Source: an uncultured Succiniclasticum sp. (GTDB taxonomy: Bacteria > Bacillota > Negativicutes > Acidaminococcales > Acidaminococcaceae). Taken from it: 64,000 nucleotides of DNA. A program made the position numbers and the translations under genes. Positions 7,161 to 27,875 of this stretch are shown here, piece by piece. Numbering within the stretch: position 1 is the first letter of the stretch; each line of letters begins with the position of its first letter. The stretch spans positions 40,742-104,741 of the forward strand of contig UQUU01000006.1 of the NCBI GenBank assembly GCA_900544275.1, written 5' to 3'. The notes below the pieces were generated by a model. It searched no databases. It saw nothing but the letters and a program-made list of their open reading frames with translations, and was not told the DNA's origin.

Positions 7161-7225
7161 TGCTGTTTCCTCCTTTGGAAATACTAATTATAAATTCATC
7201 CCTAAAAATCATGTTTTTCAACTTA

Positions 7226-8653: not shown

Positions 8654-8839
8654 CTGTATTATTTCACCACCTTTATTTCCTAATATTTTCTTCAATAAAA
8701 ACCTTCGAATTTTGAATTTTCATTCTGTCTTTATTAGCTACAGAATTAACATAGATTCCCTGTTTAGATTCAAAAGTTTTTTATAGTTTAATCAACTTAC
8801 TATTGCATTCTGCAAAATTTGCGCAAAATATCTTATTAA

Positions 8840-10525: not shown

Positions 10526-10586
10526 AAACTCTCTGTCACTCCTGCTTCATAATCGTAACGTAGTGGGAACCAACTCCCATGGCGCA

Positions 10587-11552: not shown

Positions 11553-11566
11553 AACCGACCTCCACT

Positions 11567-12313
11567 TTATCTACCCTCACCGGGCCCCAGATTATCCGTT
11601 TCGTATAAAATCGCGGCGGCGACCACAAGACCTGCGGTCTCTGTCCGCAAGATCCGACGGCCAAGACTTACGGAAACACCGCCTGCCGCTGTCACAACAG
11701 CAATTTCCTCATTCGTCAGACCGCCTTCCGGACCAATCACCACGCTGATCCGTCGAGCTTTTTTATGCGCCTGCAACACGGCCTTAAGTCCCACCTGATT
11801 TTCACTTTCATACGCCGCCAAAAGCAGCTCCGGCTCTGCCTCCGCGATTGCCTCCGCTAACGGCATCACCGGATGGACCAACGGCACAATATCCCTTTTA
11901 CTTTGCTTCGCCGCCGCTTCCGCAATTTTAGCCCACCGCTCTGTTTTTTTCGCAGCCCGAGCTGCATCCAGGACCACAACCGAATGGGTCAACGCAACCG
12001 GATAAATGTCGGTCACGCCAATTTCCACAGCCTTTTGGACTACTGTATCCATTTTATCGCCCTTAGCCAAGCCCTGCAACAAAGAAATCTGCACTGTCGG
12101 TTCGCCGCTTTCCCGCAAAATTTCTATGACGCGAACAGTCACCTGATTCTCGCCCAGCCTGACGACTTCTCCTATAAAACTGATCCCATCATCCGACACG
12201 ACCTGCAATTTACTCCCCGGCTGCATACGCAGCACATCGATAATATGATGGGCATCCAAACCGGTTATATCCATTTCCTGCGCAAAGGGCTGTGCGATAA
12301 AAAAACGGTGCAT
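11567..12313 (-). CDS. rsmE: 16S rRNA (uracil1498-N3)-methyltransferase
   Basis: RsmE/YqeU family. Found in the conserved prmA/rsmE/mtaB neighbourhood. Confidence 0.85.
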   Translation of the reverse strand: MHRFFIAQPFAQEMDITGLDAHHIIDVLRMQPGSKLQVVSDDGISFIGEVVRLGENQVTVRVIEILRESGEPTVQISLLQGLAKGDKMDTVVQKAVEIGVTDIYPVALTHSVVVLDAARAAKKTERWAKIAEAAAKQSKRDIVPLVHPVMPLAEAIAEAEPELLLAAYESENQVGLKAVLQAHKKARRISVVIGPEGGLTNEEIAVVTAAGGVSVSLGRRILRTETAGLVVAAAILYETDNLGPGEGR

Positions 12314-12470
12314 AGGGAACCTCTTTCCTGTTTTATTGTTTTTTCTATTGTCTCTTTCCTATAATATCATCGTATGTAACTATCAGTGAATATCTTTGCA
12401 ATAACAGCATCGTGCGAAGACAACATCAATCACCATTTGCCAACGATTCACAATTTACTATATTGTTTAT

Positions 12471-12528
12471 TATACCATTTTTATTCTGCTGCAACAGTGA
12501 ACTTATGCGAAATATAGACACAAAAAAC
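12471..12528. repeat. About 58-bp segment homologous to the flank of the IS256-like element at 19109-19149, with a tataccattttta piece resembling a degraded IS256 inverted-repeat end
   Basis: aacagtgaacttatgcgaaatatagacacaaaaaac here versus aacagtaaacttatacgaaacacagacacaaaaaac at 19114-19149 (32 of 36 identical). Each copy is immediately followed by a terminator hairpin. Confidence 0.6.
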
Positions 12529-12552
12529 CGGCGCAGCCTGCGCCGGTTTTTT
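12522..12552. terminator. Bidirectional rho-independent terminator (A6-ccggcgca-gcc-tgcgccgg-T6)
   Basis: Perfect 8-bp GC-rich stem flanked by an A-run and a T-run. Lies between the decarboxylase gene and rsmE. Confidence 0.65.
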
Positions 12553-12665
12553 GTTCTTAGTATGTATCTCTTGTAATATCGCCTCTCACGGCGGATGCTC
12601 AGTCAACCGTTTTCCGATAAGGGTGTCTCACGTCCTTACCGCATTGAGAGGAGGACTACCTGAAA

Positions 12666-13799
12666 TTATTTACCCACAGGTCCAATCATAGCCAGCATGG
12701 TGCCTGCTGCTACAGCAGTACCGATAACGCCTGCTACGTTGGGGCCCATGGCATGCATCAGCAGGAAGTTGGAAGGATTGGCCTTCTGACCTACCACCTG
12801 CGATACACGGGCAGCCATCGGCACCGCCGATACGCCGGCAGAACCGATCAGCGGATTTACCTTACCGCCGGACGCAACCTTCATGATCTGTCCAAAGATC
12901 AGACCTAAAGCCGTACCGGCCGCAAAAGCAATCAAGCCGAGGCAGATGATCAGGATGGTCTGGTAATTCAGGAACTTATCAGCCTGCATGGTCAGGCCGG
13001 TACCTACAGACAGGAAAATCGTGACAATATTCATCATCGCATTCTGCGCCGTATCGCTTAAACGATCCAGGCAGCCGGCTTCTTTATACAGATTGCCCAA
13101 CATCAGCATACCAATCAAAGAGCATACCGGAGGCAACAGCAAAGAGATGAAAATCGTGGAGAAAATCGGGAATACGACACGTTCAAACTTGGTGACCGTA
13201 CGCAGCTGATCCATTTTAATGGAACGGTCTGCCTTGGATGTGCACAGCTGCATAATAGGCGGCTGGATCAGCGGTACCAAAGACATGTAAGAATACGCCG
13301 CTACAGCAATCGCCCCTAACAGATGAGGAGCCATCTTAATGGTCAGGTAAATAGCCGTCGGGCCGTCAGCGCCGCCAATGATGCCAATCGCAGCGGCTTC
13401 GCGCAGGTCAAAACCCAGCAGCATCGCGCCGATCAGGCAAACAAACACACCGCCCTGTGCTGCTGCACCCAGCAACAACGTCTTGGGATTCGCAATCAGC
13501 GGACCGAAGTCTGTCATTGCTCCTACACCTAAGAAAATCAACGGGGGGAATACTTCGTTGTGAATACCAAACAAAATAACCTGCATTACACCAGGTTCCG
13601 TAAAGAAACCGGTTTTGGGAACGTTGCCCAACAAGCAGCCAAACGCAATGTTGGACAGCAGCAACGGCTCGAAGCCCTTGCCAATTGCCAGGTATAATAA
13701 AACCAGACCAACGAGAAGCATAATCGCATTGCCGCCGGTCAGACCCTGGAACCCTGAATCAGCCCATACAGACTGCAGGGAAACTATGAGTGCGTCCAT
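12666..13799 (-). CDS. Na+-translocating decarboxylase beta subunit (OadB/GcdB/MmdB family)
   Basis: Polytopic membrane protein of the OadB family. ATG at 13799 with a GGAGG RBS. It is standalone, with no alpha or gamma subunit genes adjacent. Confidence 0.8.
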
Positions 13800-14189
13800 G
13801 AAAAATCCTCCATTCACTTAATATAATTAGGATATACAAAAAAGGTAATGAGACGGTTACCTTGATTGACATAGGAAAAGAACTGCAAGCCGCTTTCCGG
13901 GTCTATCTTTTGCAAAAAGCAAGTACTACTACTTTAGGACTATATTATTCATCTCTTCATTTTTATCATACTATTATACTACACCAGTAAATAAAATAAG
14001 TCAATAAAAAGATTTCAAAAAATCGGCTTAATCCCAACTATAATGCTTTATTGATACACGTTATCAGTTATTTCTCCTCTAATATTTCATTTTGATATAC
14101 ATAATTAGTATTACTACTTTATTATATCTAAAAGTTATATTTTACTCATTATTTAATAAATAGCAAATAAAAAATGAAAAATAACAAAC

Positions 14190-14236
14190 AAAAAAACAGA
14201 GTGTGTACCTTGTCAGGGATACTGCACTCTGTTTTC
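14190..14236 (-). terminator. Terminator downstream of adhesin 1, sharing the acaaaaaacagagtgtgtacc module with the terminator at 19143-19188
   Basis: Stem acagagtg...cactctgt with flanking A- and T-runs. Confidence 0.5.
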
Positions 14237-14377
14237 CAAATTTCAGCAAGAAACGATCAGGCTTACAACACCTTTTGTTCTACTGTTTCGTTAGATTGTT
14301 TCTTTTTTGCTTTGTTATGCCATTTTTTCTACTTCATTAACGAATACTGCTCCATCATGCGGCGGCAATCAAGGCTC

Positions 14378-17300
14378 TTACTTCTCTGCCAAAAGCTTCT
14401 CCAGCTTGGCATCCATCACTTTCATACGCTCCCACAACATCTCATTGTTTTTACGCAGCTCATCATTATCTCTACGTAACTCTACGTTGTCACTGCGCAA
14501 CGCGGTGTTATCCGCTTTCAGCTGTGCCACTTCCTTGACCAACTGCACTTTTGATGTAATGGCATGGGTCGGGCCTGTTTGTTTATCCAGCTTAAAGGTG
14601 ACGCCGGCATTAACCATGTTCTCACCGTTGCCAAAGGCTCCGCCGATGTTGAACATGGTCCGTTCGTCCGGGCGGTAGAAAGCACCCAAAGCCATGGAGT
14701 TCTGTCCTTTATAATGGCCCCAGCCCGCAGCCACGTCCAACTTGTCATCCGCATCAAAATCTACGGGATGCAAGGCAGCCAAAGCAGCAGCACCGGCACC
14801 CACCTTATCTACACGGCGGTCCACGTTATTCAGGCGATTAGAAATATGATTGATTTCCTTGCTGGTTTCTTCTTTTACTTTCTGCACCTGTCCAAAAGTA
14901 GCCGCATCCGTCTTGGATGTACCATCAGCCACATTATGAATCTGCTGGTTGTGCATATCCACATTGTTCTTAGTGATTACAGGCCCGTTATTAATGGTCA
15001 TCCCATCGTTGTTAATGGTGGTATCGCCGGCCTTTATCGTCTTAGTGGTCACGGTATCCTTGCCAATTACCGTTTCTCCTACGGTAATCTTTTCCTTTAC
15101 GGTTAACGTTTCCACTCCCGTGATGTTTTTAGCCAGTTTCACCTTTAACTCGCCGCTTTCGGATACTACCCCGATATTGTTATCCGTCAGCTCTGTAGCT
15201 CCGCCTTTAATAGCCAGCGTTTCGCCCAGTTTTTTATTGATGGCACTGCCTGAATCCCCGGCAAAATTAAGCCCCTTATTCACATCACCGGAAATAGTAT
15301 CCACTAACCCGCTTACATCAACACGATAATTCTTCGTTGCATCATTTTGCGTAAATTCGATTGTCTTAGTTGATGCATCATAGCTACCCCCAGTGGTATA
15401 GGTGTCCTTAGCTGAAATCGTATAGGTAGTCGTATGGGTATTCGTATCTTTCTTCACTGCTACAGTAACATTGTCACCACCGGACACTACCGTGTTTTCG
15501 ATTCCTAAGGCAGCTGTATCCACAGACAAGTTATAGCCCACTTTTTTGCCGTTTTCTACTTTATCCGTAATCTTGACAGTCCCATCTGCCGATGTCAACT
15601 GCGGCCCACTGACAGTATACTCCTTACCGCCTTTATTATTAGGTTTTTCTGTAACAGTCACATAGTCGCCGGCTACCACGGTGGTATGTTTTCCAGCCTC
15701 TCCGGCTGCGGTCGTAACAGTTTCCTGCAGCTTTTTCAGCTGTGCCACGTTGACAGCATCGGTGTCCTGTGTACCTGCCGCCACATTAGTAATCTGGCGG
15801 GTAATCGCCGAAGAGCCTGCCGCTCCGGTCGGAGTTGCCGCTTTACCTACAGAAACAGCGGCGGCCGTCGCTTTCCATGTTGCTGACGTATCCGCAGAAA
15901 CCGTATCGGTCGAAGGATCGTAGCCGGCAACCCCCTTATCAACAGAGGCAATAGAATCCGCACCAAGCGCTACGCCGCCATCTTTTTCTACATCCGTATT
16001 GTAGCCGAGCATCACCGCATTGCTTATGTTCGCCGTATGCGATTTAATCGGTACATTTTCCATCACCTTATATTTCTGTTCGAGAATAACATTGCCCGAA
16101 GCATCTTTCATCGTATACGTTTTCTCTACAGCCTTCTTTTCCGTGGCCATGGATCCAAGGATTACATTGTTTTTACCACCGTCCATATGGTGATAATCCC
16201 CAATCACTACATCAGCTGTACTGCCGGACATATTATTCCCGGTCCCCATCATAGATACACGTTCCACATTCCTGCCTGTATTCGCATATCCGTTAATCGT
16301 ATTATTGATACCGGGTGTATTTGCTGTACCTGTAAGGATATTTCCGGAACCGATGATCTGGGAATGGACGGCATAATCTGAAGTATTTCCGTTCCCCATG
16401 GTGACCACAGAACCGCCGCCGGTCGACATGGCCAGTCCCATCGCTTTCCTGATCTCATCATGACTAAACATTCCGTCTCCGCCGGCATATCCCTGTCCCC
16501 CAAATAATATGGCTTCACCCCAATGTTCGTTCATACTGTTTCCATTTTCATCGGTCGGCGCCGTCCCGAAAGAATGTGTAACGCTATTGCCCGCGCCGAA
16601 AACGAGTGCCCCATTGGCGCCTTCTGTTTTGTTCAGGGTACCGACGACGGTGTTTGCCATCCCATCATACTGATCCTCCGTATTTGACGACGCTACAGTA
16701 TTAAGACCGCCATAGACAGAAGCCAGATAGCCGTCAAAGCCGGAATCGCCTGCCTCCACAATGGATTTGATCCCTGTCACGGTCTCCTGCCAGCCATAAG
16801 CTTTTGCCCCATGGCCAAGAGCCACATTCATTCCGCCGCCGTCTCTGGTCCCGCTCTGGGCATGATACCCGACAACGACACTGGCATGTTTCTGCCCGAT
16901 ATCGGAATCAGCCTTTTCTTCCGGTGTCATGGAACCGATAACAACAGATTCTTTACTCGCCCCAACTTTCTGGTTATCCCCGATCACGATACCCGCGCCG
17001 GGATTGACCATTTCATTATTATTCCCGATGACGGTCAGGCTCTCATACCCTTTCATATAGGTATCGTTGCCTTCAATTTTATTTCCCTTGCCAATCACAA
17101 GGTCGGACACATTCTTCGTCCTTTCTTCCTGTTTCCCGGAAACCGTACCGGCATTTCTATCGGTAATCTTATTGCTGTCCCCGATAACGGTCTGGCCTTT
17201 GCTGTTTTCAACGGTATTCTCGGAGCCAATCACGGACACGTGTTCGGCCTTGGTTACGGTATTTTTGTAGCCATCAATCATGTTAAACTTACTAATAGCC

Positions 17301-18328
17301 CCAGATGTACCTTTCAACGTATTGTTCACACCAATAATTTGAGAAAGCTGGGTCCAATCCGCTGTATTTCCTCCGCCGATGGCAAGGGTGGCACCGCCGC
17401 TATTAGAATTTTTTACTGCTGTCATCAATGACTTCTGCAGCGCCTGTGCAGAATCTCCCCCAGTAGATGGAGCAGAAATAGAAGAAATGGAATTAGTAAT
17501 TTCATTTCCTGCGCCGAAGATGAGGGACCCGTTAGAATTAGCCGTTCTGTTCGCTGTACCGACGATGCTGTTCGCCACGCCAGAATACGCGGATGACGAA
17601 GTTGCCGATTCAATGCTGTTGAGAGAACCGTAGATATTAGCCCCCATGTTCTGTGTAACATAAGAAGACCAATTACTGCCATTATATTTCCCGGAAATAA
17701 TAGAATAGGTCCCGGTCACCGAAGAAAACGCTCCCTGATTATAGCTGTTCGCACCAAGGGTAGTAGCATTTATATTTACATTTCTCGACTTGACTTTCTG
17801 TACATCGGAGCCATCAATATCTACATCTCCAAGTCTTCCTATATATTTATGATCGCCAATCATGACGCTGCCGGATCGAGCATAAGTATTCTGCCCGATT
17901 GCCACACTGCTTGCCCATTTCTTTTCGTCTGACTGTCCGAATTTGAAGAACTTTTCCTGATTACCGTACATATTTTCAACAAAAGCATTCTTCCCAATAG
18001 CGATACTACCTTCCTGCATGACATAATCGTCAATCTGCGCGTGGTCACCGATAGCAATAGCACCATTAGTAGCTGCATTGTTTCTTAAACTAATATCATT
18101 CCCAATTTTGATATTCTGGTTGCCCACTTCCACAAATTTGTTCACACCATCAATGGCAGCAAACGCAGAGTAGGGAGCCAATAAAAATAATCCCACTACC
18201 CCTGCCATCACAAGAGTAGACAGACGATGTTTGCTGCTGGCACTCTTAGTATGATTCTTCGCCAGTTCAGATGCTACTACATAGCAGTTTTTTGCCTTGC
18301 TCCAAATAACTTTGTAGACTTTGTTCAT
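14378..18328 (-). CDS. Trimeric autotransporter adhesin (type Vc, YadA-like), TAA1
   Basis: Extended signal peptide MNKVYKVIWSKAKNCYVVASELAK, then repetitive head and neck repeats with several ...TRQITNVAAG..DTDAVNVAQLKKL connectors. YadA beta-barrel anchor at about 14585-14851 (VGAGAAALAAL..GENMVNAGVTFKLD). C-terminal 68-aa heptad/coiled-coil tail at 14381-14584 instead of an SLH domain. RBS AAGGAGAG. Confidence 0.85.
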   Translation of the reverse strand: MNKVYKVIWSKAKNCYVVASELAKNHTKSASSKHRLSTLVMAGVVGLFLLAPYSAFAAIDGVNKFVEVGNQNIKIGNDISLRNNAATNGAIAIGDHAQIDDYVMQEGSIAIGKNAFVENMYGNQEKFFKFGQSDEKKWASSVAIGQNTYARSGSVMIGDHKYIGRLGDVDIDGSDVQKVKSRNVNINATTLGANSYNQGAFSSVTGTYSIISGKYNGSNWSSYVTQNMGANIYGSLNSIESATSSSAYSGVANSIVGTANRTANSNGSLIFGAGNEITNSISSISAPSTGGDSAQALQKSLMTAVKNSNSGGATLAIGGGNTADWTQLSQIIGVNNTLKGTSGAISKFNMIDGYKNTVTKAEHVSVIGSENTVENSKGQTVIGDSNKITDRNAGTVSGKQEERTKNVSDLVIGKGNKIEGNDTYMKGYESLTVIGNNNEMVNPGAGIVIGDNQKVGASKESVVIGSMTPEEKADSDIGQKHASVVVGYHAQSGTRDGGGMNVALGHGAKAYGWQETVTGIKSIVEAGDSGFDGYLASVYGGLNTVASSNTEDQYDGMANTVVGTLNKTEGANGALVFGAGNSVTHSFGTAPTDENGNSMNEHWGEAILFGGQGYAGGDGMFSHDEIRKAMGLAMSTGGGSVVTMGNGNTSDYAVHSQIIGSGNILTGTANTPGINNTINGYANTGRNVERVSMMGTGNNMSGSTADVVIGDYHHMDGGKNNVILGSMATEKKAVEKTYTMKDASGNVILEQKYKVMENVPIKSHTANISNAVMLGYNTDVEKDGGVALGADSIASVDKGVAGYDPSTDTVSADTSATWKATAAAVSVGKAATPTGAAGSSAITRQITNVAAGTQDTDAVNVAQLKKLQETVTTAAGEAGKHTTVVAGDYVTVTEKPNNKGGKEYTVSGPQLTSADGTVKITDKVENGKKVGYNLSVDTAALGIENTVVSGGDNVTVAVKKDTNTHTTTYTISAKDTYTTGGSYDASTKTIEFTQNDATKNYRVDVSGLVDTISGDVNKGLNFAGDSGSAINKKLGETLAIKGGATELTDNNIGVVSESGELKVKLAKNITGVETLTVKEKITVGETVIGKDTVTTKTIKAGDTTINNDGMTINNGPVITKNNVDMHNQQIHNVADGTSKTDAATFGQVQKVKEETSKEINHISNRLNNVDRRVDKVGAGAAALAALHPVDFDADDKLDVAAGWGHYKGQNSMALGAFYRPDERTMFNIGGAFGNGENMVNAGVTFKLDKQTGPTHAITSKVQLVKEVAQLKADNTALRSDNVELRRDNDELRKNNEMLWERMKVMDAKLEKLLAEK

Positions 18329-18429
18329 AGCGTATTTCTCTCCTTTTCTAAACTGATTTATATCTCTATACGAATTGCTTTATTATAGACAATTATATTC
18401 CCGTTTCACAAGTGCGTCAACTTTTTCAA

Positions 18430-19108
18430 GTCAAGTCCAAATTTGTGTGTAAATTCCCTTCCGGTATAGAATTTATTATGCAACCAGCAGTTGGCGCTGT
18501 TGTTGCGCTACGTGAATCAGTGAAAGCCTGGTCCCCGAATTCATTAGTTTCTGGTAATTTCCCGGGCTAAATATCTTCCTCTTTGCCTGACAGGCGTTGT
18601 GGTGCTCCACCAATACAGAGCCCATAAGACGAATCACCGAGTCGCCGTTGGGGAAAATAGCAATCACTTTAGAACGACGTTTCAATTCCTTTCCTTCTCC
18701 ATGGTAGCACTGTGGAGCATCTCTTGTAACTCGACCTGCAAACCCGATTGGTCTCCCGTACTTTAAAGTAGGTTGCATCCCCCGTCACAAAAGGGCAGTA
18801 CTCGGTAAGAGCCCGATTTCGAAACGTTTCTACTTCCTTGTCCAGCTCTTTCCAAAGGCTGGATACCGCCGATTTAGATATACTGGTACCGCATACTGTT
18901 TAAAGCGTTTTGCCATAGGCTTTTGAAAGCTTCATTACGATCTTGTGCCAGTAACTGTAGAATTTCTTCCTGATTTAGTGTAATATTGAGTTGAGCCATT
19001 TTGCTTACCTCCAGTATTATGTTGGTGTGGTAATCTACAGTATACCAGAAGGTTGAGCAGATGACTCGTTTTGATTTTTTGAATTTACACCATTATACGG
19101 ACTTTATC
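18430..19108 (-). mobile_element. Internally deleted IS256-family (mutator-type) insertion sequence remnant
   Basis: The reverse complement of 19081-19108 reads gataaagtccgtataatggtgtaaattc, matching the IS256 terminal inverted repeat GATAAAGTCCGTATAATTGTGTAAAA from memory. A degenerate inverted copy lies at 18430-18456 (gtcaagtccaaatttgtgtgtaaattc). Between them sit transposase N- and C-terminal fragments only. Total length is about 680 bp versus about 1.3 kb for an intact element. Confidence 0.65.
18476..18999 (-). pseudogene. IS256-family transposase pseudogene
   Basis: N-terminal 41 codons (18874-18999, MAQLNITLNQEEILQLL..YQYI, with a GGAGGT RBS) and a C-terminal fragment (18476-18778, ..KVIAIFPNGDSVIRLMGSVLVEHH..). 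They are separated by stops and a frameshift, and the middle about 250 aa including the DDE region is absent. Confidence 0.6.
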
Positions 19109-19149
19109 GCCGTAACAGTAAACTTATACGAAACACAGACACAAAAAAC
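19109..19149. repeat. IS-flanking segment duplicated at 12489-12528
   Basis: See the feature at 12471-12528. It is directly followed by the adhesin 2 terminator. Confidence 0.6.
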
Positions 19150-19188
19150 AGAGTGTGTACCCGTTAAAAGGCACACGCTCTGTTTTTT
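19143..19188 (-). terminator. Terminator downstream of adhesin 2
   Basis: cagagtgtgtacc-N7-ggcacacgctctg followed by a T6 run. It shares its 5' half with the adhesin 1 terminator. Confidence 0.5.
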
Positions 19189-19305
19189 AGGTTTTTGTTC
19201 ATTCGCTATTGTCTGGGAACCATTGTACAAAACTGCGAACCGGGATGTGACTGCGCAACACCGCTTCTCATCTTATACAACAAAACTCAAATCTGCACAA
19301 CCATG

Positions 19306-22300
19306 TCATTTCGCCGCTACCTGAATTTTAGAGCCATATGTATCTCGTTCCTGCGTATTTTCATTATTCACGCGTACACGTTCAATCTTGTTCCTGTCAT
19401 TATCCTTACCGTATACACGATCTACACGGATTCGCCCCATTTCCGGCGCAAATTCTTTCAACGCACGAGCATCTACATTAGCTCCGTTTTCCATGGCGCG
19501 GTACAAAAGAGCAGCAAATTCATACCGGGTCATCATTCGGTTGCCGGCAAAGCTGCCATCCGGATACCCTTTAATGATGCCGTTGCCGGCCAGTTTCGCA
19601 ATGTATTCATACGCCCAGTGATTTTCCGGTACATCCGGGAACAGCTTCGTCATTTCCGGATCCAGCATCCAGTTCCCGTTCGCACGGGCCGCCTTCAGTT
19701 CCGTAATTTCCTTACGCAGATCCATGATTTCGCGAGCCATGGCTGTGCGGCTGGTAGTAATATGGCTCTTGCGATCCAGCGCAAAAGTCACGCCGGCATT
19801 CACCATATTTTCTCCGCCACCTACGGAAGCCCCAATATTGAACATCGTATTTTCGTCAGGACGGTAGAACGCGCCGATTGCCCCTGCATGAGAGCCTTTA
19901 TAGCTGCCATAGCCGGCGGATACGTTCCACTTATCATCGGGGTCGAAATCCAGCGGATGCATGGCTGCCAAAGCCGCCGCACCGGCGCCCACTTTGTTGA
20001 CACGACCGTCCAGTTTGCTGATCTGGTTGCCCAACTCGTTCAGGCCCTTGCCCGCATCTTCTGCCAGTTTGCCCAGTTGACCAACGGTAGCCGCATCATG
20101 CGCATCAACACCGTCTGCCACGTTGGTGATCTTCTTATTACCTGCGTCAATGCCATTTTTCGTAATGGTTACACCTGGCTTACCATCGGCGCCCCGGACA
20201 GAGATGCCGTCCTTATTTACCTGGGTACCGCCGGCATTAAGGCTGTCCACATTCAGATTCTTATTCAGCGCAACCGTATATTTATTTTCATTCTGACCTT
20301 CGGTCTTGTTCACGACAATATTTTCATCGCCGCTTTCAACCGTAGTGATCTTCGCGTTTGCACTCATCTGATCCATGGCCAACTGCAGCTGTTCTTCGGT
20401 AGCTGCCCGCTTACTGGTAGCAAAACCTGCCACGTTCAGGGACGTATTCGTCAAGCCGGTAACTTCGCCTTTGCCATCTTTACCATTCACCGCAACGCCG
20501 CCCACCTGAATCTTTTTATCAAGGCTGACTGTGTAGGTAGTGGAACCGTCGGCTTCTTTCTTATCTGCAACTTTCACACCGGTAACGGCATCTCCAGTAA
20601 CCTGTACCTTGTTCGCTTTAATTTGACCTTCCAGCGTATCAACTTTATCAAGTTTATCTTTCGCCGCCTTATTCAGGCCAATCTTGACATCATTGCCGTC
20701 TGCAGTCACTTCCGTATAGCTACCCGCTACGAAATTTACTACGTTGTCTTTACCAATGACGCGCTCATTTTTGCCATTCACCTGCAGCTTCCAGGCGCTG
20801 GCCTGCGACAAGTTACTGGTAATATTTGTAATAGCCGTATTCCCGGTCAGGTCAATCTTAGAGCCGTCAATACCATACTTCACGGTATTCCCTTCGCGTT
20901 TTACCGTCAGGCCTTTGTCCGCTTCGGCCACGTCAAACCTGATTGCCGGCGTTTCGTTGCCGTCCAGCGCGATCTTCGCGCCTGTGCTCTCCGTTCCCGC
21001 TCTCAGCTCAAAACCGCGGCTCAGATTGTTGGTGATGTTCGTCACGGTCGTGTTACTGCTCAGGTCGATATTCTTACCCAGATTGGCGTTAGCCTTTACA
21101 GTCACGGTAGCGCCATCAGACGCATGGGCCACATCCACATCAATTTTGCCGGCTTCGCCTTGGAACTTGATGTTCTGTTTGGTATCGCCGCCCAACGCGA
21201 TGTTCTGTTTCTCGCCTGCAGCGTTGCTGACGGTGAAGCCGTCTTGCAGCGCCTTAATATCAGTGGTAACGTCGGCATTGACAGCTTTCAGCTGACGCAG
21301 ATTCACGGCATCAGTGTCTTCCGTGCCGTCGGCCACGTTGATGATCTGGCGCAGGAAGGGGATTTTGCGGCCCCCCAATCCCTCATAGACGCCACCCACA
21401 GAAACAACTCCGTTGACGACACTGTTAGATCCCATGGCGTGGTACACTTGCGCGCCCCCAATATCGTCTTTGAAGTACAGTTTTTGACCGCTGAAAGGAG
21501 CGACAACTTTCTTGCCATCGGCATATTTCGTCTGTTCATCTATTGGTTGTTCTGGGTGTTCTGGGTCAACTATTGGGTGTTTGGGGTCAACCTGGCGCCA
21601 TGGCCTTGTCCACGAGCCGAGACCGACGCTGCCAGGGCGATCCACCTGGGACTTATGGCCCAGTGCCACACCGCCGAAGTCCATGAAAGACGTGCTTTCG
21701 GGCAGGTTCAGTTTGCCGTTGCCGACCGATGCCCCGGGACCGAGAGCAACGGAGTAACGACCTTTCACAACAACATCGGAACCAATACCGACGGAGGAAA
21801 TAGGATGAACCGTTTCTTCCCCATCGTTTTTAAACAGCGCTTTGGTTGAGGCGTTGGATCCGATAATAATATTTTGGGTATTTGCGGCGTGAGCCTTATA
21901 GCCCATGGCGATGGTGCCGTTGCCTGCGGCATAGGCCTGCCGTCCCACGGCAAGACCGGCATCATCCCGATTGTCGTTTCTGCTGTATCGATTGTAGTTT
22001 CCGATGGCTTTCGCACCGTCACCGATGGCAATTCCGTAAGACTTTTTCTCCTTTGTTGTGTGATTCAGCAGCGCCCCGTAGTACCCCGCTGTGGCTTTGC
22101 GCCCGATGGCAACGCTGCCTTCGGTGCCGGCCTGCGAACTGTCGCCTACGGCCACTGCCCCGTCGCCTGCGATGTTGTGTGCTGTAGTTAAGCTCGCTCC
22201 TCCCCCCAAAGATTCCGTAGCAAAACGAGTGCCTGTCACAGCGTTCTTGCCGATGGCCACACTGCCGTTGCCCGCCGCCGAAGCGTCGCTACCCAGCGCC

Positions 22301-25300
22301 ACGGCATGGTCGCTGCTGATCTTCTCTGGCGTTTTCCACGGCTCAACTTCGAGCTCCAATGTCCGGGCTTTCTGTCCTACGGCGATAGAACCAGTGCTTT
22401 TTGCTCCGTCGTTATTCCAGTTAGTACCCACGGGATTGGCGCTGTCGTCGGCCTTGACGGAGAAGTAGTGTACAGCCCCCTCAGTCACCTGTTTATTCAG
22501 CGCCTTGAGCTGTGCCACGTTGACGGCGTCGGTGTCTTTCGCACCTGCGGCGAGGTTGGTGATCTGGCGGGTGTTATCGGCATTGCCTACGGATACAGCA
22601 GCCTTGCCAGATGTCCATACTGGATTCTTTTTCTCTGTGGATGATTTTCCGGTGGACGGATCATAACCAGACACGCCCGCTTCGGTATTAGCCACGGAGT
22701 CGGCGCCCAGAGCTACCCCGCCGGCTTTCTGCACGTCTGCGTTGTGCCCGATCAGCACGGCGTCGGCGGCTTTCAGTTCCGTTCCGTTTTCTGTGTCAGC
22801 CGCTCCGAGTACGATGCTTCCGTTCGCTCCCGTCAGTTTCCTGTTGTCACCGAGCAAAATGGCATTTTTCGTATTGCTCAGCTTATTGTTGGAGCCGATG
22901 ACGGACACGTGTTGAACGTTTTCCGCCGTGTTCGCAAAGCCGTCAAGCATGTTATATTCGCTTGGCGTATTACTCGTCCCTGTCAATTTGTTGCCCACAC
23001 CCACTACTTTGGAAAGCAAGGCGTAGTCCGCCGTATTGGCTCCGCCGATGGCCAGTACGGATCCGCCGCTTTCTTTCACCATACCGCCAAGTACATCAAT
23101 CATGTCGGTATTATCACCGTTATCGATTGCTTTTTGTAACGCCTCGCTCGCCGCATTTACATCAAAGGGCGTAGTACCGGCCGATACCTCTCTGTAAGAA
23201 TTGGTGACTTTATTGCCGGCGCCGAAGATCAGTGCGCCGTTGGCGTTCTCTGTCCTGTTCGCCACACCGACAATGCTATTGGCTACTCCGTCAAAGCGAA
23301 CGTCGTCTTTTCCGGCAATCGTATTAAACGAGCCATATATAGAGGACGTCGCTCCTTGGAATCCTGTTGTGTATCCGGTTGCCCCGTTCCCCTGAATCTG
23401 GTTAAACGCACCGGTTGCAGCAGAAGCCGTCCCGTTTGCCACTGCGCCCGCGCCGGCTGCCAGTGCCATGCCGCCCTTCGCGCCGTCATTGTTGTAGTTG
23501 CCCACGGGGCTATTACCATCATTCACATGGTAATAGTGGGTACGTTGGTTGTCTGTTTTTTGGCTCAGCGCTTTCAGCTGCGCCACGTTGACGGCGTCAT
23601 TATCAGCAGCACCGCCGGCCACATTTGTGATACGACGATAATTTTTAGCAACTGTCGTATCGCCTACCTTGTATTCTTCATTGCCAACGGATACCACACC
23701 ATTTTCTTTTGCGAAGGCCTCATTGGATAAATAAGCCTTGGTTGCTACGTCATCTGCAATATTGGCAAGTGAATTTGCACCGAGAGCCACAGAGTTATCG
23801 GAAGCGGCACGCGCATGGGAGCCTATCGCTGCTGATTTTGTTACAGAAGTTGTCCCATCCAGCGTGGAGGTAATCGCATAATCGCCTAACGCCATGGAAC
23901 TTTCACCGATAGAACGTGCCCAATGGCCGATCGCCACGGAATCCTTGCCTTCCGCTCTTGCCTGCTTGCCAAGCGCATTTGCATAATGACCGATCGCCTT
24001 TGACATGACACCGATTGATACCGTATTTGTATCAAAAGCTTCTGCCCCTGCACCCAAAGCGGTGTCCTGATAGCCAAATGCTTTTGCACCAAATCCCACC
24101 GCCGTGGAATTCATCGTTTCCTTGCCCGGCGCAACGACAGTATCATCATCCACTGGCGTAAAGTAATTATTGGAAACACCGATATTCGGCGTAGTTCCAT
24201 CGGGTGCCTGCTTACCGATATAGGCACTTCGTCCTATCGCCGTGCCATTCCATGCAGTAGCATCCGTCGTCGCTTTTGCGCCGAATACTGCCGTATGGGC
24301 CGCGCCTGCCTTAGACTGTGCGCCAACAGCAAGAGATACATCACCCAAAGCCTTTGCCTCACGCCCATATGCTGCAGAATCATTAGTTTTTGCATCGGAA
24401 AGAATACCAATCGCCAGGGAATTGGCTCCTTCCGCCTTTGCACCATACGCCATGGCAACTGCTGTAGAAGCCTTTGCTTCTGATTGACGTCCAATAGCTA
24501 CACCAAAACCACCTGTAGCCTTTGCACCTAAACCTATAGAAATATCCTGTACGCCTGCTTCTGCACCACTACCTATAGCAATAGCAGCTTCACCAGTTGT
24601 CTTGGGCGCAGAAAACTCTGCTCCATCACTTCCTAATGCGATGCTATGTTTTCCATCTGCTTTTGCTCCACGGCCAATAGCTATCGCTTTCGCTCCTGTA
24701 GCCCCATCATTATTCCAGTTCGTATTCTCAGGCTTGGCGCTGTCGTCGGCAGCCACGGAGAAATAGTGCACGGCGCCTTCGTCAACTTTGCCGCTCAGCG
24801 CTTTGAGCTGTGCCACGTTGACGGCGTCGGTGTCTTCAGTGCCGGCGGCGAGGTTGGTGATTTGGCGGGTGCCGTCGTTTCTGCCCACGGACACGGCGCC
24901 GAAAACGGATTTATACGAAGCGAGCAGTTCGTTTTTCTTGCTTTTGGCAGTGTTTAAAGTGTTTTTGGCGTTCCTCAGAGCTTGTTTATTGGCGTCGCTC
25001 TGGTCTGCGTCGTAGGCCTGCTGTGCTGCGGTCACGGCGGTCTGTGCGTTGGCGATATTCGTCTCGGCCGCCGTCAGTTCGGCGGTTTTCCCCAGTGCGG
25101 CAGCCACGGCCGCGTCGTTGGCAAATGCGGCGCCGGTAACGGGGTCGTAACCTAAAACGTCCTTGCCACGGTTCGCTACAGACTTGGCGCCCAGCGCCAC
25201 ACCGCCGGCTACCATTGCCTGAGAATCATATCCCAGCGCCAGTGCCTGTTTAGCTTCAGCGCTACTCCAGGCGCCCAGAGCCACGCTGCCTGACGCCTTT

Positions 25301-27543
25301 GCCTGAGAGTCATATCCCATTGACGCAGCCATTAGAGCCTGGGCTTTGCTCTCCACGCCCAAAGCTATCGTGTAGTCTTCGGTGGCTGCGGATTCGGTCC
25401 CCACAGCCAACGCACCGTAGCCGGAAACGTTCAGATCGTTGCCTAAAGCCACGCCCTTGTCTTCATCGCCGCTCACTGTATTGTGATGTCCGAAAGCGAC
25501 ACCGCCGTAAGCTGATACCGTTGTATTCGTGCCCACAACCACACCGCCGCCGTTTACCGTGTTTGTGAGGCCCACAACCACGTTCTCGTCATCGCCGTGC
25601 CCTTTGAATTTCGTATACTTCCACTCAGTGCCGACCCGCTCTGCCGTATAGCCGACAAGGTTTCCTACCCCGATAACGGTGTTGCGTTCACCGGCTACGT
25701 GAGTCAATAGTTTGTCGGTACCATTCTGATAGTCTGTGCCGAAAACCGCATTCCGCGCGCCTTCCACCGTCAAATTTTGTCCGACCACAATGCTGTTGTT
25801 TTCGCCGTCCCTCTCAACACCGCGGGCATTAGGTTGATTAGAAAGTGTATTGTTATTTCCGAGGACAGTGCTGTTTTTGGCTTTCTCAGAAATGGAAGAA
25901 GAAATGCCGATAACCATACTGTCCGCAGCCTTGGCGCCATCGTTGGCGTAGTTGGTCCCGGCGCCCTGTTGATCGCTCTTGACGGAATAATAGTGCACGG
26001 CGCCTTCGTCAACTTTGCCGCTCAGTGCCTTGAGCTGCGCCACGTTGACGGCGTCGGTGTCTTCGCTGCCTGCGGCTACGCCCGTAATCTGGCGGGTCCG
26101 GCCCGTAGAAGCGTCGCCCACGGACACGGCGGCGACGCCGGATTTCCAAGACGCCAGCATGGTGCGCTTTTCTTCCTGAGAGGCGTTCAGTTGTCTGGTC
26201 GCCTCATTAAGCTCGGTTGCAGCCTGCGACCAGGCGTCATACAGTTGCCCCGACAAAGTGCCGTCCTGATTATTATAGTAAGCAGCCTTTGCGGTGTCAT
26301 AAGCAGCTTTTTTCTCGTTATAAGTTGCCTGTTGGGCGTCAATGGTCGTATTCAGCGTTTCCAGCTCGGAGCTTTTACCCAATACGGTGGCAATTTCGGC
26401 GTCACTGGCATAGACGGCGCCGCTTTTCGGGTTGTAGCCGCGCGTAAAGCCGGCGCGGTCGGCTATGGATTTGCTGCCGAGAGCCACGCTGTCGGCAAGC
26501 TGCGCCGAGGCGTCTTTGCCGATGGCGGCGGCGTTCTTGGCATCAGCCGACACGAGCCCGCCACTGAGAGCCGTGGAGTTGTCCGCCAAAGCTTTGGAGC
26601 TATTGCCGGCGGCGAGACTGGCGTCGCCCTTTGCCTCCGTCCAGCCGTTGAGCGCCACGGAATCCTGGCCGCTGGCCTTTGTGGAATGGCCTAAAGCGAC
26701 GGAGTTTTTGCCGAAAGCTTTCGTAGAATCGCCCATGGCGACGGAATTTTTGCCGCTGGCAATCAGTTCGGGTTCTTCACTGGGGTTGCGTCGCCACCCT
26801 TCGCCGAAGGCGAAGGAGTTTGCGCCTGCAGCGAGAACGCCGCGGCCGAAGGCAAAGGCATTGTCGTTGGTAGCCATGCTTGCAGAGCCGCCAGAAAAGG
26901 CGTTCAGTCCGTCGGCGACGGTATAGTGACCTGTGGCGATGGCGTTGGTTTTCGCCGCGGCCGTGGCGAAGCCGAGAGCGGTGGCATAGCCGTAATCTTT
27001 ATGGCCGTCCGCCTTTTTGAACCGCGCGCCGCCCGTAGGCGCCAGTTCGGTCGCGTAGGTCACGTTGATGACATTGCCGTCGGCGTCTTTGATTTCGTTC
27101 CGTTCCAGCTCGATGCCGGCAAGGGTCAGACAGCCGAGGGCCGTGTTGCCGCCGTCAAGTCCCAGCAGCGTGTCGGACCTGTTTGTCCCCACCTGATTGT
27201 AACGACCGTAAATATTTTGCATATATTGACTGAACGTGCCGTAGTTTTGCACGCTGTTGTCGATAATAAAGCCGTCGATATTGACGATGCGGCTGAACTT
27301 AGAGTCATCGACTTTGCTACTGTCAATAGTAATAGCGCCGATTTTGCCGACATTGTCAGTCGGCGCAAGATCTGTGGCATAGACCACCCCATGTCCGGCA
27401 GTCAACATAAAGGCTGTCACCAGCGCTGCCAAAGAAATAGCAGGTTTTGCCGATTTGCATTTAGAATGTCTCTTTGCCAGCTCTGAAACCACCACATAAC
27501 AGGCTTTTACTTTGCTCCAGATCACCTTGTAAATTTTATTCAT
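19306..27543 (-). CDS. Giant trimeric autotransporter adhesin with C-terminal SLH domain, TAA2
   Basis: Extended signal peptide MNKIYKVIWSKVKACYVVVSELAK. At least 5 near-identical connector repeats (..GTRQITN[LV]AAG.EDTDAVNVAQLKALSGKVDEGAVHY[FY]SV). YadA anchor at about 19776-20040. SLH domain at about 19492-19680 (NGNWMLDPEMTKLFPDVPENHWAYEYIAKLAGNGIIKGYPDGSFAGNRMMTRYEFAALLYRAM), the usual outer-membrane-to-peptidoglycan tether in Negativicutes. The track ORF extends to 27552. Confidence 0.85.
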   Translation of the reverse strand: MNKIYKVIWSKVKACYVVVSELAKRHSKCKSAKPAISLAALVTAFMLTAGHGVVYATDLAPTDNVGKIGAITIDSSKVDDSKFSRIVNIDGFIIDNSVQNYGTFSQYMQNIYGRYNQVGTNRSDTLLGLDGGNTALGCLTLAGIELERNEIKDADGNVINVTYATELAPTGGARFKKADGHKDYGYATALGFATAAAKTNAIATGHYTVADGLNAFSGGSASMATNDNAFAFGRGVLAAGANSFAFGEGWRRNPSEEPELIASGKNSVAMGDSTKAFGKNSVALGHSTKASGQDSVALNGWTEAKGDASLAAGNSSKALADNSTALSGGLVSADAKNAAAIGKDASAQLADSVALGSKSIADRAGFTRGYNPKSGAVYASDAEIATVLGKSSELETLNTTIDAQQATYNEKKAAYDTAKAAYYNNQDGTLSGQLYDAWSQAATELNEATRQLNASQEEKRTMLASWKSGVAAVSVGDASTGRTRQITGVAAGSEDTDAVNVAQLKALSGKVDEGAVHYYSVKSDQQGAGTNYANDGAKAADSMVIGISSSISEKAKNSTVLGNNNTLSNQPNARGVERDGENNSIVVGQNLTVEGARNAVFGTDYQNGTDKLLTHVAGERNTVIGVGNLVGYTAERVGTEWKYTKFKGHGDDENVVVGLTNTVNGGGVVVGTNTTVSAYGGVAFGHHNTVSGDEDKGVALGNDLNVSGYGALAVGTESAATEDYTIALGVESKAQALMAASMGYDSQAKASGSVALGAWSSAEAKQALALGYDSQAMVAGGVALGAKSVANRGKDVLGYDPVTGAAFANDAAVAAALGKTAELTAAETNIANAQTAVTAAQQAYDADQSDANKQALRNAKNTLNTAKSKKNELLASYKSVFGAVSVGRNDGTRQITNLAAGTEDTDAVNVAQLKALSGKVDEGAVHYFSVAADDSAKPENTNWNNDGATGAKAIAIGRGAKADGKHSIALGSDGAEFSAPKTTGEAAIAIGSGAEAGVQDISIGLGAKATGGFGVAIGRQSEAKASTAVAMAYGAKAEGANSLAIGILSDAKTNDSAAYGREAKALGDVSLAVGAQSKAGAAHTAVFGAKATTDATAWNGTAIGRSAYIGKQAPDGTTPNIGVSNNYFTPVDDDTVVAPGKETMNSTAVGFGAKAFGYQDTALGAGAEAFDTNTVSIGVMSKAIGHYANALGKQARAEGKDSVAIGHWARSIGESSMALGDYAITSTLDGTTSVTKSAAIGSHARAASDNSVALGANSLANIADDVATKAYLSNEAFAKENGVVSVGNEEYKVGDTTVAKNYRRITNVAGGAADNDAVNVAQLKALSQKTDNQRTHYYHVNDGNSPVGNYNNDGAKGGMALAAGAGAVANGTASAATGAFNQIQGNGATGYTTGFQGATSSIYGSFNTIAGKDDVRFDGVANSIVGVANRTENANGALIFGAGNKVTNSYREVSAGTTPFDVNAASEALQKAIDNGDNTDMIDVLGGMVKESGGSVLAIGGANTADYALLSKVVGVGNKLTGTSNTPSEYNMLDGFANTAENVQHVSVIGSNNKLSNTKNAILLGDNRKLTGANGSIVLGAADTENGTELKAADAVLIGHNADVQKAGGVALGADSVANTEAGVSGYDPSTGKSSTEKKNPVWTSGKAAVSVGNADNTRQITNLAAGAKDTDAVNVAQLKALNKQVTEGAVHYFSVKADDSANPVGTNWNNDGAKSTGSIAVGQKARTLELEVEPWKTPEKISSDHAVALGSDASAAGNGSVAIGKNAVTGTRFATESLGGGASLTTAHNIAGDGAVAVGDSSQAGTEGSVAIGRKATAGYYGALLNHTTKEKKSYGIAIGDGAKAIGNYNRYSRNDNRDDAGLAVGRQAYAAGNGTIAMGYKAHAANTQNIIIGSNASTKALFKNDGEETVHPISSVGIGSDVVVKGRYSVALGPGASVGNGKLNLPESTSFMDFGGVALGHKSQVDRPGSVGLGSWTRPWRQVDPKHPIVDPEHPEQPIDEQTKYADGKKVVAPFSGQKLYFKDDIGGAQVYHAMGSNSVVNGVVSVGGVYEGLGGRKIPFLRQIINVADGTEDTDAVNLRQLKAVNADVTTDIKALQDGFTVSNAAGEKQNIALGGDTKQNIKFQGEAGKIDVDVAHASDGATVTVKANANLGKNIDLSSNTTVTNITNNLSRGFELRAGTESTGAKIALDGNETPAIRFDVAEADKGLTVKREGNTVKYGIDGSKIDLTGNTAITNITSNLSQASAWKLQVNGKNERVIGKDNVVNFVAGSYTEVTADGNDVKIGLNKAAKDKLDKVDTLEGQIKANKVQVTGDAVTGVKVADKKEADGSTTYTVSLDKKIQVGGVAVNGKDGKGEVTGLTNTSLNVAGFATSKRAATEEQLQLAMDQMSANAKITTVESGDENIVVNKTEGQNENKYTVALNKNLNVDSLNAGGTQVNKDGISVRGADGKPGVTITKNGIDAGNKKITNVADGVDAHDAATVGQLGKLAEDAGKGLNELGNQISKLDGRVNKVGAGAAALAAMHPLDFDPDDKWNVSAGYGSYKGSHAGAIGAFYRPDENTMFNIGASVGGGENMVNAGVTFALDRKSHITTSRTAMAREIMDLRKEITELKAARANGNWMLDPEMTKLFPDVPENHWAYEYIAKLAGNGIIKGYPDGSFAGNRMMTRYEFAALLYRAMENGANVDARALKEFAPEMGRIRVDRVYGKDNDRNKIERVRVNNENTQERDTYGSKIQVAAK

Positions 27544-27667
27544 TGTGCACATCCCCTTCCTCTTATACTCGACGTAATCGTTGTAGAATAGTGGAAATAA
27601 CTTTTCTTAATGAAATTATAATCAGTATGATTCTGTCTGTCAAATTTTAATTTTCAGTTTTTTTATT

Positions 27668-27713
27668 TCGTAAATTGCAATAAGAAGTTGCACACTTTTT
27701 ATTGCAATTTACG
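27668..27713. promoter_or_regulatory. Perfect 15-bp inverted repeat (tcgtaaattgcaata-N16-tattgcaatttacga) in the AT-rich region upstream of TAA2
   Basis: Read from the sequence. It lies about 115-160 bp upstream of the TAA2 start. On the dnaJ transcript it is not followed by a U-run, so it looks like an operator rather than a terminator. Confidence 0.3.
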
Positions 27714-27818
27714 ACTTTTACTTTTCATTTTTTCTCGTATTTTTCTACATATCCCATGTTACCTCTTCTTTTGTTGTATTTGTGCTTGCAGTATACTATT
27801 TAGTAATCAAAAATACAA

Positions 27819-27869
27819 TATCCCCCTTACACAAGCTTTGGCTAGGGCCTTGGCTGTATAAGGGGGATA
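27819..27869 (-). terminator. Rho-independent terminator of the dnaK operon (after dnaJ)
   Basis: tatcccccttaca...tgtataagggggata stem of 13-15 bp. On the minus-strand RNA it is followed by UAUUGUAUUUUUGAUU. Confidence 0.6.
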
Positions 27870-27875
27870 ATTTGA

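Follow-up and report, generated by a model that had tools for sequence, protein, structure and literature searches.

Trimeric autotransporter adhesin genes at a probable long-standing break between dnaJ and rsmE in an uncultured Succiniclasticum species

The stretch of DNA analysed here, which we call the window, comprises 64,000 nucleotides of contig UQUU01000006.1 from an uncultured Succiniclasticum sp., and we are interested in the 15.5 kb within it that separate dnaJ from rsmE. The minus strand holds every gene from position 1 to about 57.8 kb, with transcription running from high to low coordinates, in the order dnaJ, TAA2, IS256 remnant, TAA1, OAD_beta, rsmE, prmA, mtaB. TAA1 and TAA2 are genes for trimeric autotransporter adhesins (TAAs); OAD_beta encodes the beta subunit of a Na+-translocating decarboxylase. 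A first reading made from the letters alone (the sequence-only reading) had placed a beta-subunit gene, two TAA genes (1316 and about 2745 aa), the remnant of an IS256 insertion sequence (IS) and AT-rich promoters at 12314-27875, between rsmE and dnaJ, and all of these are present where it put them (Table 1). We consider it likely that the ancestral dnaK operon of Firmicutes was broken long ago at the dnaJ|rsmE junction and that genes have since accumulated there in three layers.

In Bacillus subtilis, hrcA-grpE-dnaK-dnaJ-yqeT(prmA)-yqeU(rsmE)-yqeV(mtaB) form a heptacistronic operon (Homuth et al. 1997, as cited in PMC2952846). The same seven genes are found in the window, with lepA-hemW upstream, rpsU-yqeY-floA downstream and, before hrcA, a perfect CIRCE (controlling inverted repeat of chaperone expression), so that the chaperone operon is classically HrcA-controlled. 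Unlike its B. subtilis counterpart, the operon is cut by a terminator after dnaJ, 15.5 kb with three other units follow, and rsmE comes before prmA. Thus, the Bacillus-like flanking order proposed by the sequence-only reading holds for the genes of the neighbourhood, but not for their exact arrangement, which is rsmE-prmA-mtaB here and prmA-rsmE-mtaB there. With a terminator after dnaJ, three further terminators and a changed order, co-transcription of dnaJ-prmA-rsmE-mtaB in the manner of Bacillus is not predicted for the window.

Four strong predicted terminators would set dnaJ, TAA2, TAA1 and OAD_beta apart as transcription units. Each TAA gene is also preceded, about 64 nt ahead of its ATG, by a predicted sigma-70-type promoter, and the intergenic DNA that carries these promoters is AT-rich (30-42% GC, compared with about 50% overall), with blocks of only 30-32% GC. 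The hairpin nearest to rsmE had been taken for that gene's own terminator. The hairpin is real, but rsmE is read downwards from 12313, which puts the hairpin ahead of that gene and behind OAD_beta; its predicted role is to terminate the OAD_beta unit, keeping transcripts begun further upstream out of rsmE. It follows that rsmE must use a promoter within 12314-12520, the interval in which our candidate promoters lie. An AT-rich palindrome located 25 nt upstream of the predicted TAA2 promoter may act as an operator or, on the plus strand, as a terminator.

Both adhesins begin with the ESPR signal (PF13018; E=6.9e-16 in TAA1 and E=2.2e-14 in TAA2) and carry the C-terminal anchor PF03895, for which TAA1 also matches the YadA anchor of PDB entry 2lme. 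The passenger of TAA2 matches YadA_head (E=2e-45) and YadA_stalk (E=2e-60), and that of TAA1 matches YadA_stalk (E=9e-18) together with PDB sequences of SadA, Ata, BadA and the YadA head; no Pfam head family matches the TAA1 head. Beyond the anchor, TAA2 extends for about 157 aa, comprising a short coil and an SLH domain (PF00395), and TAA1 for a tail of about 70 aa (VAQLKADNTALRSDNVELRRDNDELRKNNEMLWERMKVMDAKLEKLLAEK) that is heptad-like and a coiled coil by inspection alone. Where the two proteins can be aligned at all, which is in patches only, they are 40-51% identical in amino acids. Judged by this divergence, they are old paralogues; the paralogy that the sequence-only reading asserted is borne out, and recent duplication is not.

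Given their family and the work on Veillonella parvula, both proteins would be exported by Sec via the ESPR signal and would form a trimeric, 12-stranded YadA-type barrel in the outer membrane, from which head and stalk would be displayed as adhesins for surfaces or partner cells. On the periplasmic side, the SLH domain of TAA2, binding peptidoglycan, or the coiled coil of TAA1 would hold or stabilise the protein. SLH and coiled-coil types of periplasmic domain have been described for the TAAs of Negativicutes (PMC7549365; bioRxiv 10.64898/2026.01.22.700529). In the classes of Terrabacteria TAAs proposed by Dorison et al. 2026 (bioRxiv 10.64898/2026.01.22.700529), TAA1 has the 'short' and TAA2 the 'long' kind of periplasmic domain; nothing in the window contradicts that scheme, and the window supplies it with a neighbouring pair, one from each class.

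The beta-subunit gene matches PF03977 over its full length (E=1e-149) and scores 475 bits against TIGR01109, for which the cut-off is 190.6. Decarboxylases of this kind act on oxaloacetate, methylmalonyl-CoA or glutaconyl-CoA, and their beta subunit serves as carboxybiotin decarboxylase and Na+ channel; for a succinate fermenter, the methylmalonyl-CoA enzyme would be expected. Genes for the alpha (carboxyltransferase) and biotin-carrier/gamma subunits are missing from the annotated open reading frames (ORFs) of the 64-kb window, and the partners must therefore be encoded elsewhere. OAD_beta lies directly upstream of rsmE in six species-level lineages, namely the window species and comparison loci L102, L101, L100, L013 and L007, whose RsmE proteins are, respectively, 90%, 77%, 74% and (for the last two) about 70% identical to that of the window; L102 represents the sister species. 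Nucleotide identity between L102 and the window is 88.1% for OAD_beta with its AT-rich leader and 86.9-87.2% for the housekeeping flanks, so that the gene diverges like its flanks, which is the pattern of vertical inheritance. With L013 the OAD_beta protein is 93% identical, at an RsmE identity of 72%. By sequence comparison, then, OAD_beta is a strongly conserved core gene rather than an accessory one, and it probably serves a Na+-pumping decarboxylase of this succinate- or amino-acid-fermenting family.

In order to place the junction in a wider context, we compared 14 Acidaminococcaceae loci (L001-L014), in nine of which dnaJ is within reach, and loci from outside the Negativicutes. Among the latter, about 15 Firmicutes loci (Syntrophomonas, Desulfotomaculum, Gelria and various Clostridia) read hrcA-grpE-dnaK-dnaJ-prmA-rsmE-mtaB with gaps of tens of bases, and the order in Eggerthellaceae is hrcA-dnaJ-rsmE-mtaB. 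These loci, together with the B. subtilis operon (PMC2952846), uphold the conserved synteny of the sequence-only reading and mark the contiguity of dnaJ, prmA and rsmE as ancestral. The window's RsmE is 64-72% identical to those of Succiniclasticum and other Acidaminococcaceae genomes in GTDB, and the matches listed by a protein search with RsmE are all Succiniclasticum-like. The 90% clusters of DnaJ and DnaK contain metagenome-assembled genomes named 'Succiniclasticum sp.' or 'Acidaminococcaceae bacterium'. In all 14 Acidaminococcaceae loci the order is the swapped rsmE-prmA-mtaB, whereas prmA comes first in Bacillus and in the remaining Firmicutes of the sample; the swap is a local rearrangement that accompanies the break after dnaJ.

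In each of the nine Succiniclasticum-like loci that include both genes, dnaJ stands apart from rsmE, and the content of the gap varies by species. S. ruminis and four relatives (L002-L005, L014) have there a gene of the phosphatase type, XopH-like (similar to protein tyrosine phosphatases or phytases), whose product of about 370 aa bears an N-terminal hydrophobic segment. The gap holds a Fic gene in L006, three GGDEF genes in L001, and one TAA gene, of 1533 aa, in L012. For L007 and L013, OAD_beta adjoins rsmE and the contig ends ahead of dnaJ; in four other loci dnaJ is out of reach and genes resembling restriction-modification genes lie upstream. The sequence-only reading had suggested asking whether relatives carry the same genes in the gap, and among the Acidaminococcaceae loci they do not do so uniformly. 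Since gap content varies within the clade, the junction would have been broken early and would since then have been a tolerated site for different genes.

Within the species itself, RsmE has exact matches in 168 indexed blocks of an assembly collection and DnaJ in 114, and the sample labels suggest that these samples are gut metagenomes. Our comparison covers 19 places, which group about 44 contigs, each read as far as the contig reaches. In every readable contig with an identical RsmE, one or more TAA genes and OAD_beta lie upstream of rsmE; similarly, a TAA gene directly follows dnaJ in every readable contig with an identical DnaJ. The length of that dnaJ-adjacent TAA is nonetheless anything but constant among strains with identical DnaJ or RsmE, with alleles of 2097, 2572, 2748, 2802, 2901, 2906, 3825 and 3863 aa. 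Compared by blastn, the alleles are mosaic: their ESPR ends are 96-100% identical, their anchor-SLH ends about 98%, and parts of the middle 72-78%. Kilobase deletions also occur; for example, window position 27461 is joined to 24844 in L081. In TAA2, a 116-nt segment encoding neck and stalk is repeated at 22457, 23525, 24755 and 25982, a spacing of about 1.07-1.23 kb, and these repeats offer sites for crossover. Tandem Repeats Finder (TRF) reports no tandem arrays between rsmE and dnaJ. Four near-identical alleles of about 2572 aa (L084, L087, L089 and L090, at about 240-7960 in the coordinates of each locus), from different samples, each carry a different lesion: a gain of 5 bp, one AAAGC repeat unit; a nonsense single-nucleotide polymorphism (SNP); a loss of 1 bp in GGCGGC; and a loss of 1 bp in a run of six A. 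Repeated inactivation, phase variation and errors of assembly are all possible sources of such broken alleles.

TAA1, by comparison, belongs to a segment that is specific to certain strains. Breakpoints in blastn alignments delimit a cassette of 4931 bp, consisting, in order of transcription, of a copy of about 60 nt of the rsmE leader, the IS256 remnant, the TAA1 promoter, TAA1 and the TAA1 terminator. In strains with a single TAA gene (L081, L083-L090, L096), window position 19141 is joined directly to 14209, and only one copy of the 60-nt leader sequence is present. The joints fall within about 19-20 nt (GGTACACACTCTGTTTTTT) formed by the 3' arm and T-run that both TAA terminators have in common. 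We found the cassette in three independently sampled places, representing two distinct contigs (L082/L091 at 100% identity, L092 at 98.5%), and alongside two TAA2 alleles, of 2748 and 2802 aa. In L102, the sister species, the C-terminus of an SLH-type TAA directly adjoins the AT-rich OAD_beta leader, which is the single-TAA layout; since the cassette is lacking there, insertion is the more parsimonious direction.

The IS256/Mutator transposase remnant inside the cassette is heavily decayed. Its ORF alone matches PF00872 with E=9e-6, whereas a translation stitched from three frames reaches E=5.5e-20, at profile positions 126-180 and 343-374; about 170 codons are left, compared with about 400 aa for an intact transposase. 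No inverted repeats of at least 30 nt occur in the region, and neither its peptide nor its DNA has a match in the plasmid collection searched.

Beyond its own cluster, TAA1 is most closely related to proteins of Dialister invisus, 1518-1524 aa in length. The likeness is confined to one part of the protein. The head of TAA1 (aa 58-880) is 90-93% identical in amino acids to the Dialister protein over about 810 residues, compared with about 60% over 30 residues for the signal peptide and 47% for stalk, anchor and tail; in DNA, the borders of the shared head block are sharp, and nothing in the rest of the cassette matches the Dialister locus. Housekeeping flanks of relatives from the same family, by comparison, are 69-81% identical to the window in nucleotides, and Dialister belongs to the Veillonellales, Succiniclasticum to the Acidaminococcales. 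The Dialister gene sits on a contig of 1.9 Mb, in the stable chromosomal setting recQ ... TAA ... tyrA.

L107 has the head block too, with identical borders and 90.2% nucleotide identity, fused to an SLH-type C-terminus; the block also occurs, with a fourth C-terminal type, in 1585-aa proteins. (L107 carries, at 733-12377, two tandem SLH-type TAA genes, of 1646 and 2160 aa, beside a thiolase gene, and it is the first of them that has the head block.) At its 3' border the block meets a conserved neck/stalk repeat (family D1). TAA2 was compared locally with 120 TAA1 matches, and nothing exceeded about 56% amino acid identity. Sequence comparison thus argues strongly that an adhesin head module has been exchanged laterally between orders. 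GC content and GC content at third codon positions (GC3) were considered as guides to the direction of transfer and rejected as uninformative, as the GC3 of the block falls below that of both hosts.

The sequence-only reading had taken the entire region for a lineage-specific insertion, and had proposed a comparison of GC and tetranucleotide signatures with the flanks. The signature is present in tetranucleotides but absent from GC content, which is 0.499 in the region and 0.487-0.505 in the flanks. Codon bias, too, is host-like. Karlin codon bias B is 0.222 for TAA2 (GC3 0.578), 0.233 for TAA1 (GC3 0.491) and 0.406 for OAD_beta (GC3 0.592), all of which are within the host range for B (0.263 +/- 0.073, maximum 0.489, among host genes of at least 300 aa, with GC3 of 0.569 +/- 0.037). 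A Schlafen-like gene elsewhere in the window, conversely, stands out (B 0.602, GC3 0.273), and the codon test is therefore able to detect foreign DNA here. Because synonymous codon usage is host-like, we ascribe the rise in tetranucleotide distance to the amino acid and repeat content of the TAAs, whose make-up is repetitive and rich in Ala, Gly, Asn and Thr. Given this bias, tetranucleotide deviation was rejected as proof of foreign origin. With all ORFs of at least 100 aa accounted for, the region contains no integrase or recombinase beyond the decayed IS256 transposase; ARAGORN finds no tRNA in the 64-kb window; and between 12000 and 28200 no pair of direct repeats brackets the whole, the sole bracketing repeat being the one that bounds the inner 4.93-kb cassette. 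Judged by its sequence, the region, taken as a whole, is not an island of recent acquisition.

It is important to weigh this interpretation against its alternatives. That the whole 15.5 kb entered the dnaJ-prmA/rsmE operon as a single, horizontally acquired accessory island strikes us as very unlikely. An island of this kind would account for the interruption of ancestral synteny, the tetranucleotide distance raised across the region, the presence of an IS remnant and the differences in content between related species; its parts, however, differ in age, since OAD_beta is found in six lineages and diverges like the flanks, the TAA is fixed in the species and only 4.93 kb are strain-specific, and an island must also be reconciled with the host-like GC and codon usage of TAA2 and OAD_beta and with the lack of an integrase, tRNA or outer bounding repeats. 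What remains of the earlier claim is that contiguity is broken by lineage-specific genes; these are not one unit, and the TAA1 cassette alone behaves as a strain-specific insertion. Even for the cassette the opposite history can be imagined, in which the two-TAA layout is ancestral and single-TAA strains arose by deletion between similar terminators. The repeat GGTACACACTCTGTTTTTT sits exactly at the junction, where such repeats can mediate deletion, the decay of the IS256 gene suggests long residence, and the cassette accompanies two different TAA2 alleles. We nevertheless regard deletion as doubtful, in view of the single-TAA layout of L102, the cassette's minority share of the grouped contigs (3 of 22 in one set; 9 of 13 resolvable in the other), and the lower GC3 and foreign head block of TAA1.

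A more trivial account would make both the Dialister likeness and the cassette products of chimeric assembly from metagenomes in which the two species co-occur. Both organisms are indeed found in gut metagenomes, and TAA genes do break and confuse assemblies, many contigs ending inside them. Yet the identity to Dialister is about 90% rather than about 100%, the reading frame is intact, the exact TAA1 protein occurs on 11 contigs (NCBI, JGI, ENA, Logan), the same flanks recur in independent samples (L082/L091, L092), and the borders of the block are identical against two different partners, Dialister and L107; we therefore give chimerism hardly any credence. As for the broken TAA alleles, programmed on/off phase variation, as opposed to decay or assembly error, would fit four alleles that lie 3-4 SNPs apart in 8 kb, each with a lesion of its own, two of them in short repeats (the AAAGC unit and the A6 run). 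Of the other two lesions, however, one is a nonsense SNP and one a deletion in GGCGGC, which is not repetitive; the tracts have little length, the alleles of the window contain no simple-sequence tract by TRF, and assembly or consensus errors in mixed populations are a possible alternative. Programmed variation thus seems to us rather improbable.

Several points weigh against the layered history that we prefer. The comparisons bound the age of the break only within Acidaminococcaceae, and the contigs compared are mostly metagenome assemblies. Whether the cassette was inserted or lost is decided by one outgroup contig, L102. Tetranucleotide distance is raised across the region (z 1.3-4.9), and the GC3 of TAA1 lies about 2 standard deviations under the host mean, yet is also unlike that of the Dialister locus (0.53-0.64), so that it points to neither direction of transfer.

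The layered history may then be put as follows. At the level of the family, dnaJ has its own predicted terminator, and rsmE-prmA-mtaB, with rsmE and prmA swapped, form a separate unit. In a second layer, at the level of genus or species, OAD_beta lies beside rsmE, and one SLH-type TAA between OAD_beta and dnaJ, each with its own predicted promoter and terminator; the passenger of this TAA would be rapidly rebuilt by recombination between the repeated neck/stalk-coding segments, so that strains with the same DnaJ and RsmE carry alleles of 2097-3863 aa. In the third layer, that of strains, the 4.93-kb cassette would have recombined in between the terminator of the resident TAA and the AT-rich OAD_beta leader. 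The TAA1 that it carries would itself be mosaic, its 2.4-kb head block having been acquired laterally, the gene pool of origin being that of Dialister invisus or of a similar member of the Veillonellales.

Table 1. Features of the window in and around the dnaJ|rsmE junction, in order of transcription (dG, predicted folding free energy; z, score against shuffled sequences; terminators and promoters are predictions).
Feature	Position	Strand	Details
lepA, hemW, hrcA, grpE, dnaK	right flank, upstream of dnaJ	minus	
CIRCE	32854-32880		perfect; TTAGCACTC-N9-GAGTGCTAA; upstream of hrcA
dnaJ	27876-29033	minus	Pfam DnaJ, DnaJ_CXXCXGXG, DnaJ_C; last gene of CIRCE/HrcA-type hrcA-grpE-dnaK-dnaJ operon
dnaJ terminator	27819-27869	minus	hairpin dG -31.1, z -6.0, then U-rich run
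AT-rich palindrome	27668-27714		20-bp stem, dG -23.3, z -7.5
TAA2 promoter	27615-27643	minus	TTGACA-17-TATAAT, 12/12 consensus positions
TAA2	19306-27552	minus	2748 aa; ESPR, YadA_head, YadA_stalk, YadA_anchor (aa 2537-2591), SLH (aa 2638-2680)
TAA2 terminator	19142-19189	minus	hairpin + T-run, dG -28.3, z -6.1
Bounding repeat, left copy	about 19141-19161		TAA2 terminator 3' arm + T-run
TAA1 cassette	14210-19140	minus	4931 bp; strain-specific by blastn breakpoints
Duplicate of about 60 nt	19090-19149	minus	copy of rsmE leader 12470-12528 including TATAAT box; repeat family D7
IS256/Mutator transposase remnant	about 18479-18999	minus	N-terminal, middle and C-terminal fragments in three frames
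TAA1 promoter	18392-18420	minus	TTGACG-17-TATAAT, 11/12 consensus positions
TAA1	14378-18328	minus	1316 aa; Pfam ESPR, YadA_stalk, YadA_anchor (aa 1192-1246)
TAA1 head-module block	15718-18153	minus	aa 59-871; 89.5% nt identity to Dialister invisus TAA over 2438 bp
TAA1 terminator	14191-14237	minus	hairpin + T-run, dG -20.2, z -3.6
Bounding repeat, right copy	14189-14209		TAA1 terminator 3' arm + T-run
OAD_beta leader/promoter region	13800-14377	minus	AT-rich, 30% GC; 88% nt identity to L102
OAD_beta	12666-13799/13817	minus	Na+-translocating decarboxylase beta subunit; 377 aa from ATG at 13799
OAD_beta terminator	12520-12554	bidirectional	hairpin, 16-bp stem, dG -28.7, z -6.2
Candidate rsmE-prmA-mtaB promoters	12361-12477	minus	consensus matches: extended -10 TGGTATAAT at 12477-12469; TTCACT-18-TATTAT at 12390-12361
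rsmE	11567-12313	minus	Pfam + NCBIfam
prmA	10587-11552	minus	Pfam + NCBIfam
mtaB	8840-10525	minus	Pfam + NCBIfam
Schlafen/AlbA_2 + HATPase_c_4 gene	7226-8695	minus	GC 35-39%
orf133	4178-4579	minus	133 aa; no Pfam/NCBIfam family

On the 3' side of mtaB follow a Schlafen/AlbA_2 gene, a HIT gene, rpsU, yqeY, floA, orf133, PPK2, a radical-SAM gene and pgeF; the remaining genes of the window include nrdR, ftsZ, the dcw/mur cluster, folate genes and fab genes. The Schlafen-like gene, which separates mtaB from the HIT gene, is carried by only some conspecific contigs (L082, L085, L089) and was clearly inserted recently; it possibly has a role in defence, and PADLOC returns weak partial matches only. 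MtaB has 561 aa in the window species and 481-489 aa in the sister species, with an extra or variable stretch (about 9970-10170) between the UPF0004 and radical-SAM domains and no TRAM domain match listed. Between floA and PPK2, orf133 is kept in all conspecific contigs, and its position is taken in L101 and L100 by a gene of 156 or 240 aa with no recorded Pfam family. An Rfam scan of the whole 64-kb window yields no family at the gathering score.

Bartonella BadA/Vomp, Acinetobacter Ata and Salmonella SadA are modular in head, neck and stalk, and their repeated neck and stalk segments permit recombination and variation in length. To our knowledge, these proteobacterial TAAs have no periplasmic extension. 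The TAAs of the window are similarly mosaic, modular and variable in length, but the exchange partner of TAA1 belongs to another order of diderm Firmicutes. A closer parallel is the Vta cluster of Veillonella parvula, in which adjacent TAA genes evolve by domain swaps, duplications and losses via homologous recombination (Bechon et al. 2020, PMC7549365), and some strains have split or pseudogenised copies (PMC7549365). The window's locus resembles it in having neighbouring, recombining TAA genes with broken copies in some strains. It differs in belonging to the Acidaminococcales, in lying at dnaJ|rsmE rather than upstream of rRNA genes, in comprising one or two TAA genes rather than up to nine, in having a head module common to another order at about 90% nucleotide identity, and in being known from sequence alone. 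Thus, the locus joins the recombining TAA loci already known from Negativicutes, with a chromosomal site that is new for them, and the head module that it shares with another order is its most notable feature.

A bolder proposal, which we put forward as speculation and think unlikely to prove correct, is that dnaJ|rsmE serves as a docking site for adhesin swapping, at which gut Acidaminococcales and Veillonellales would exchange ready-made TAA heads by recombining at conserved segments that encode neck/stalk and signal peptide, while small frameshifts would repeatedly silence the genes under pressure from host or phage. If this were true, strain-level adhesion specificity would be set by an inter-order pool of head cassettes.

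Knowledge of how TAAs work is left unchanged by the dnaJ|rsmE locus. What it provides is a worked example, outside Veillonella, of adhesin diversification in diderm Firmicutes, with kilobase changes in length among strains that are otherwise identical, a cassette gained at paired terminators and a head shared across orders. It also indicates that a deeply conserved operon, dnaK-dnaJ-prmA-rsmE-mtaB, has been split in one family to become a tolerated site for variable genes. The variation of these TAAs makes assemblies break inside the genes that encode them, and in the gut it probably shapes colonisation, co-aggregation and exposure to phage and immunity at the level of strains.

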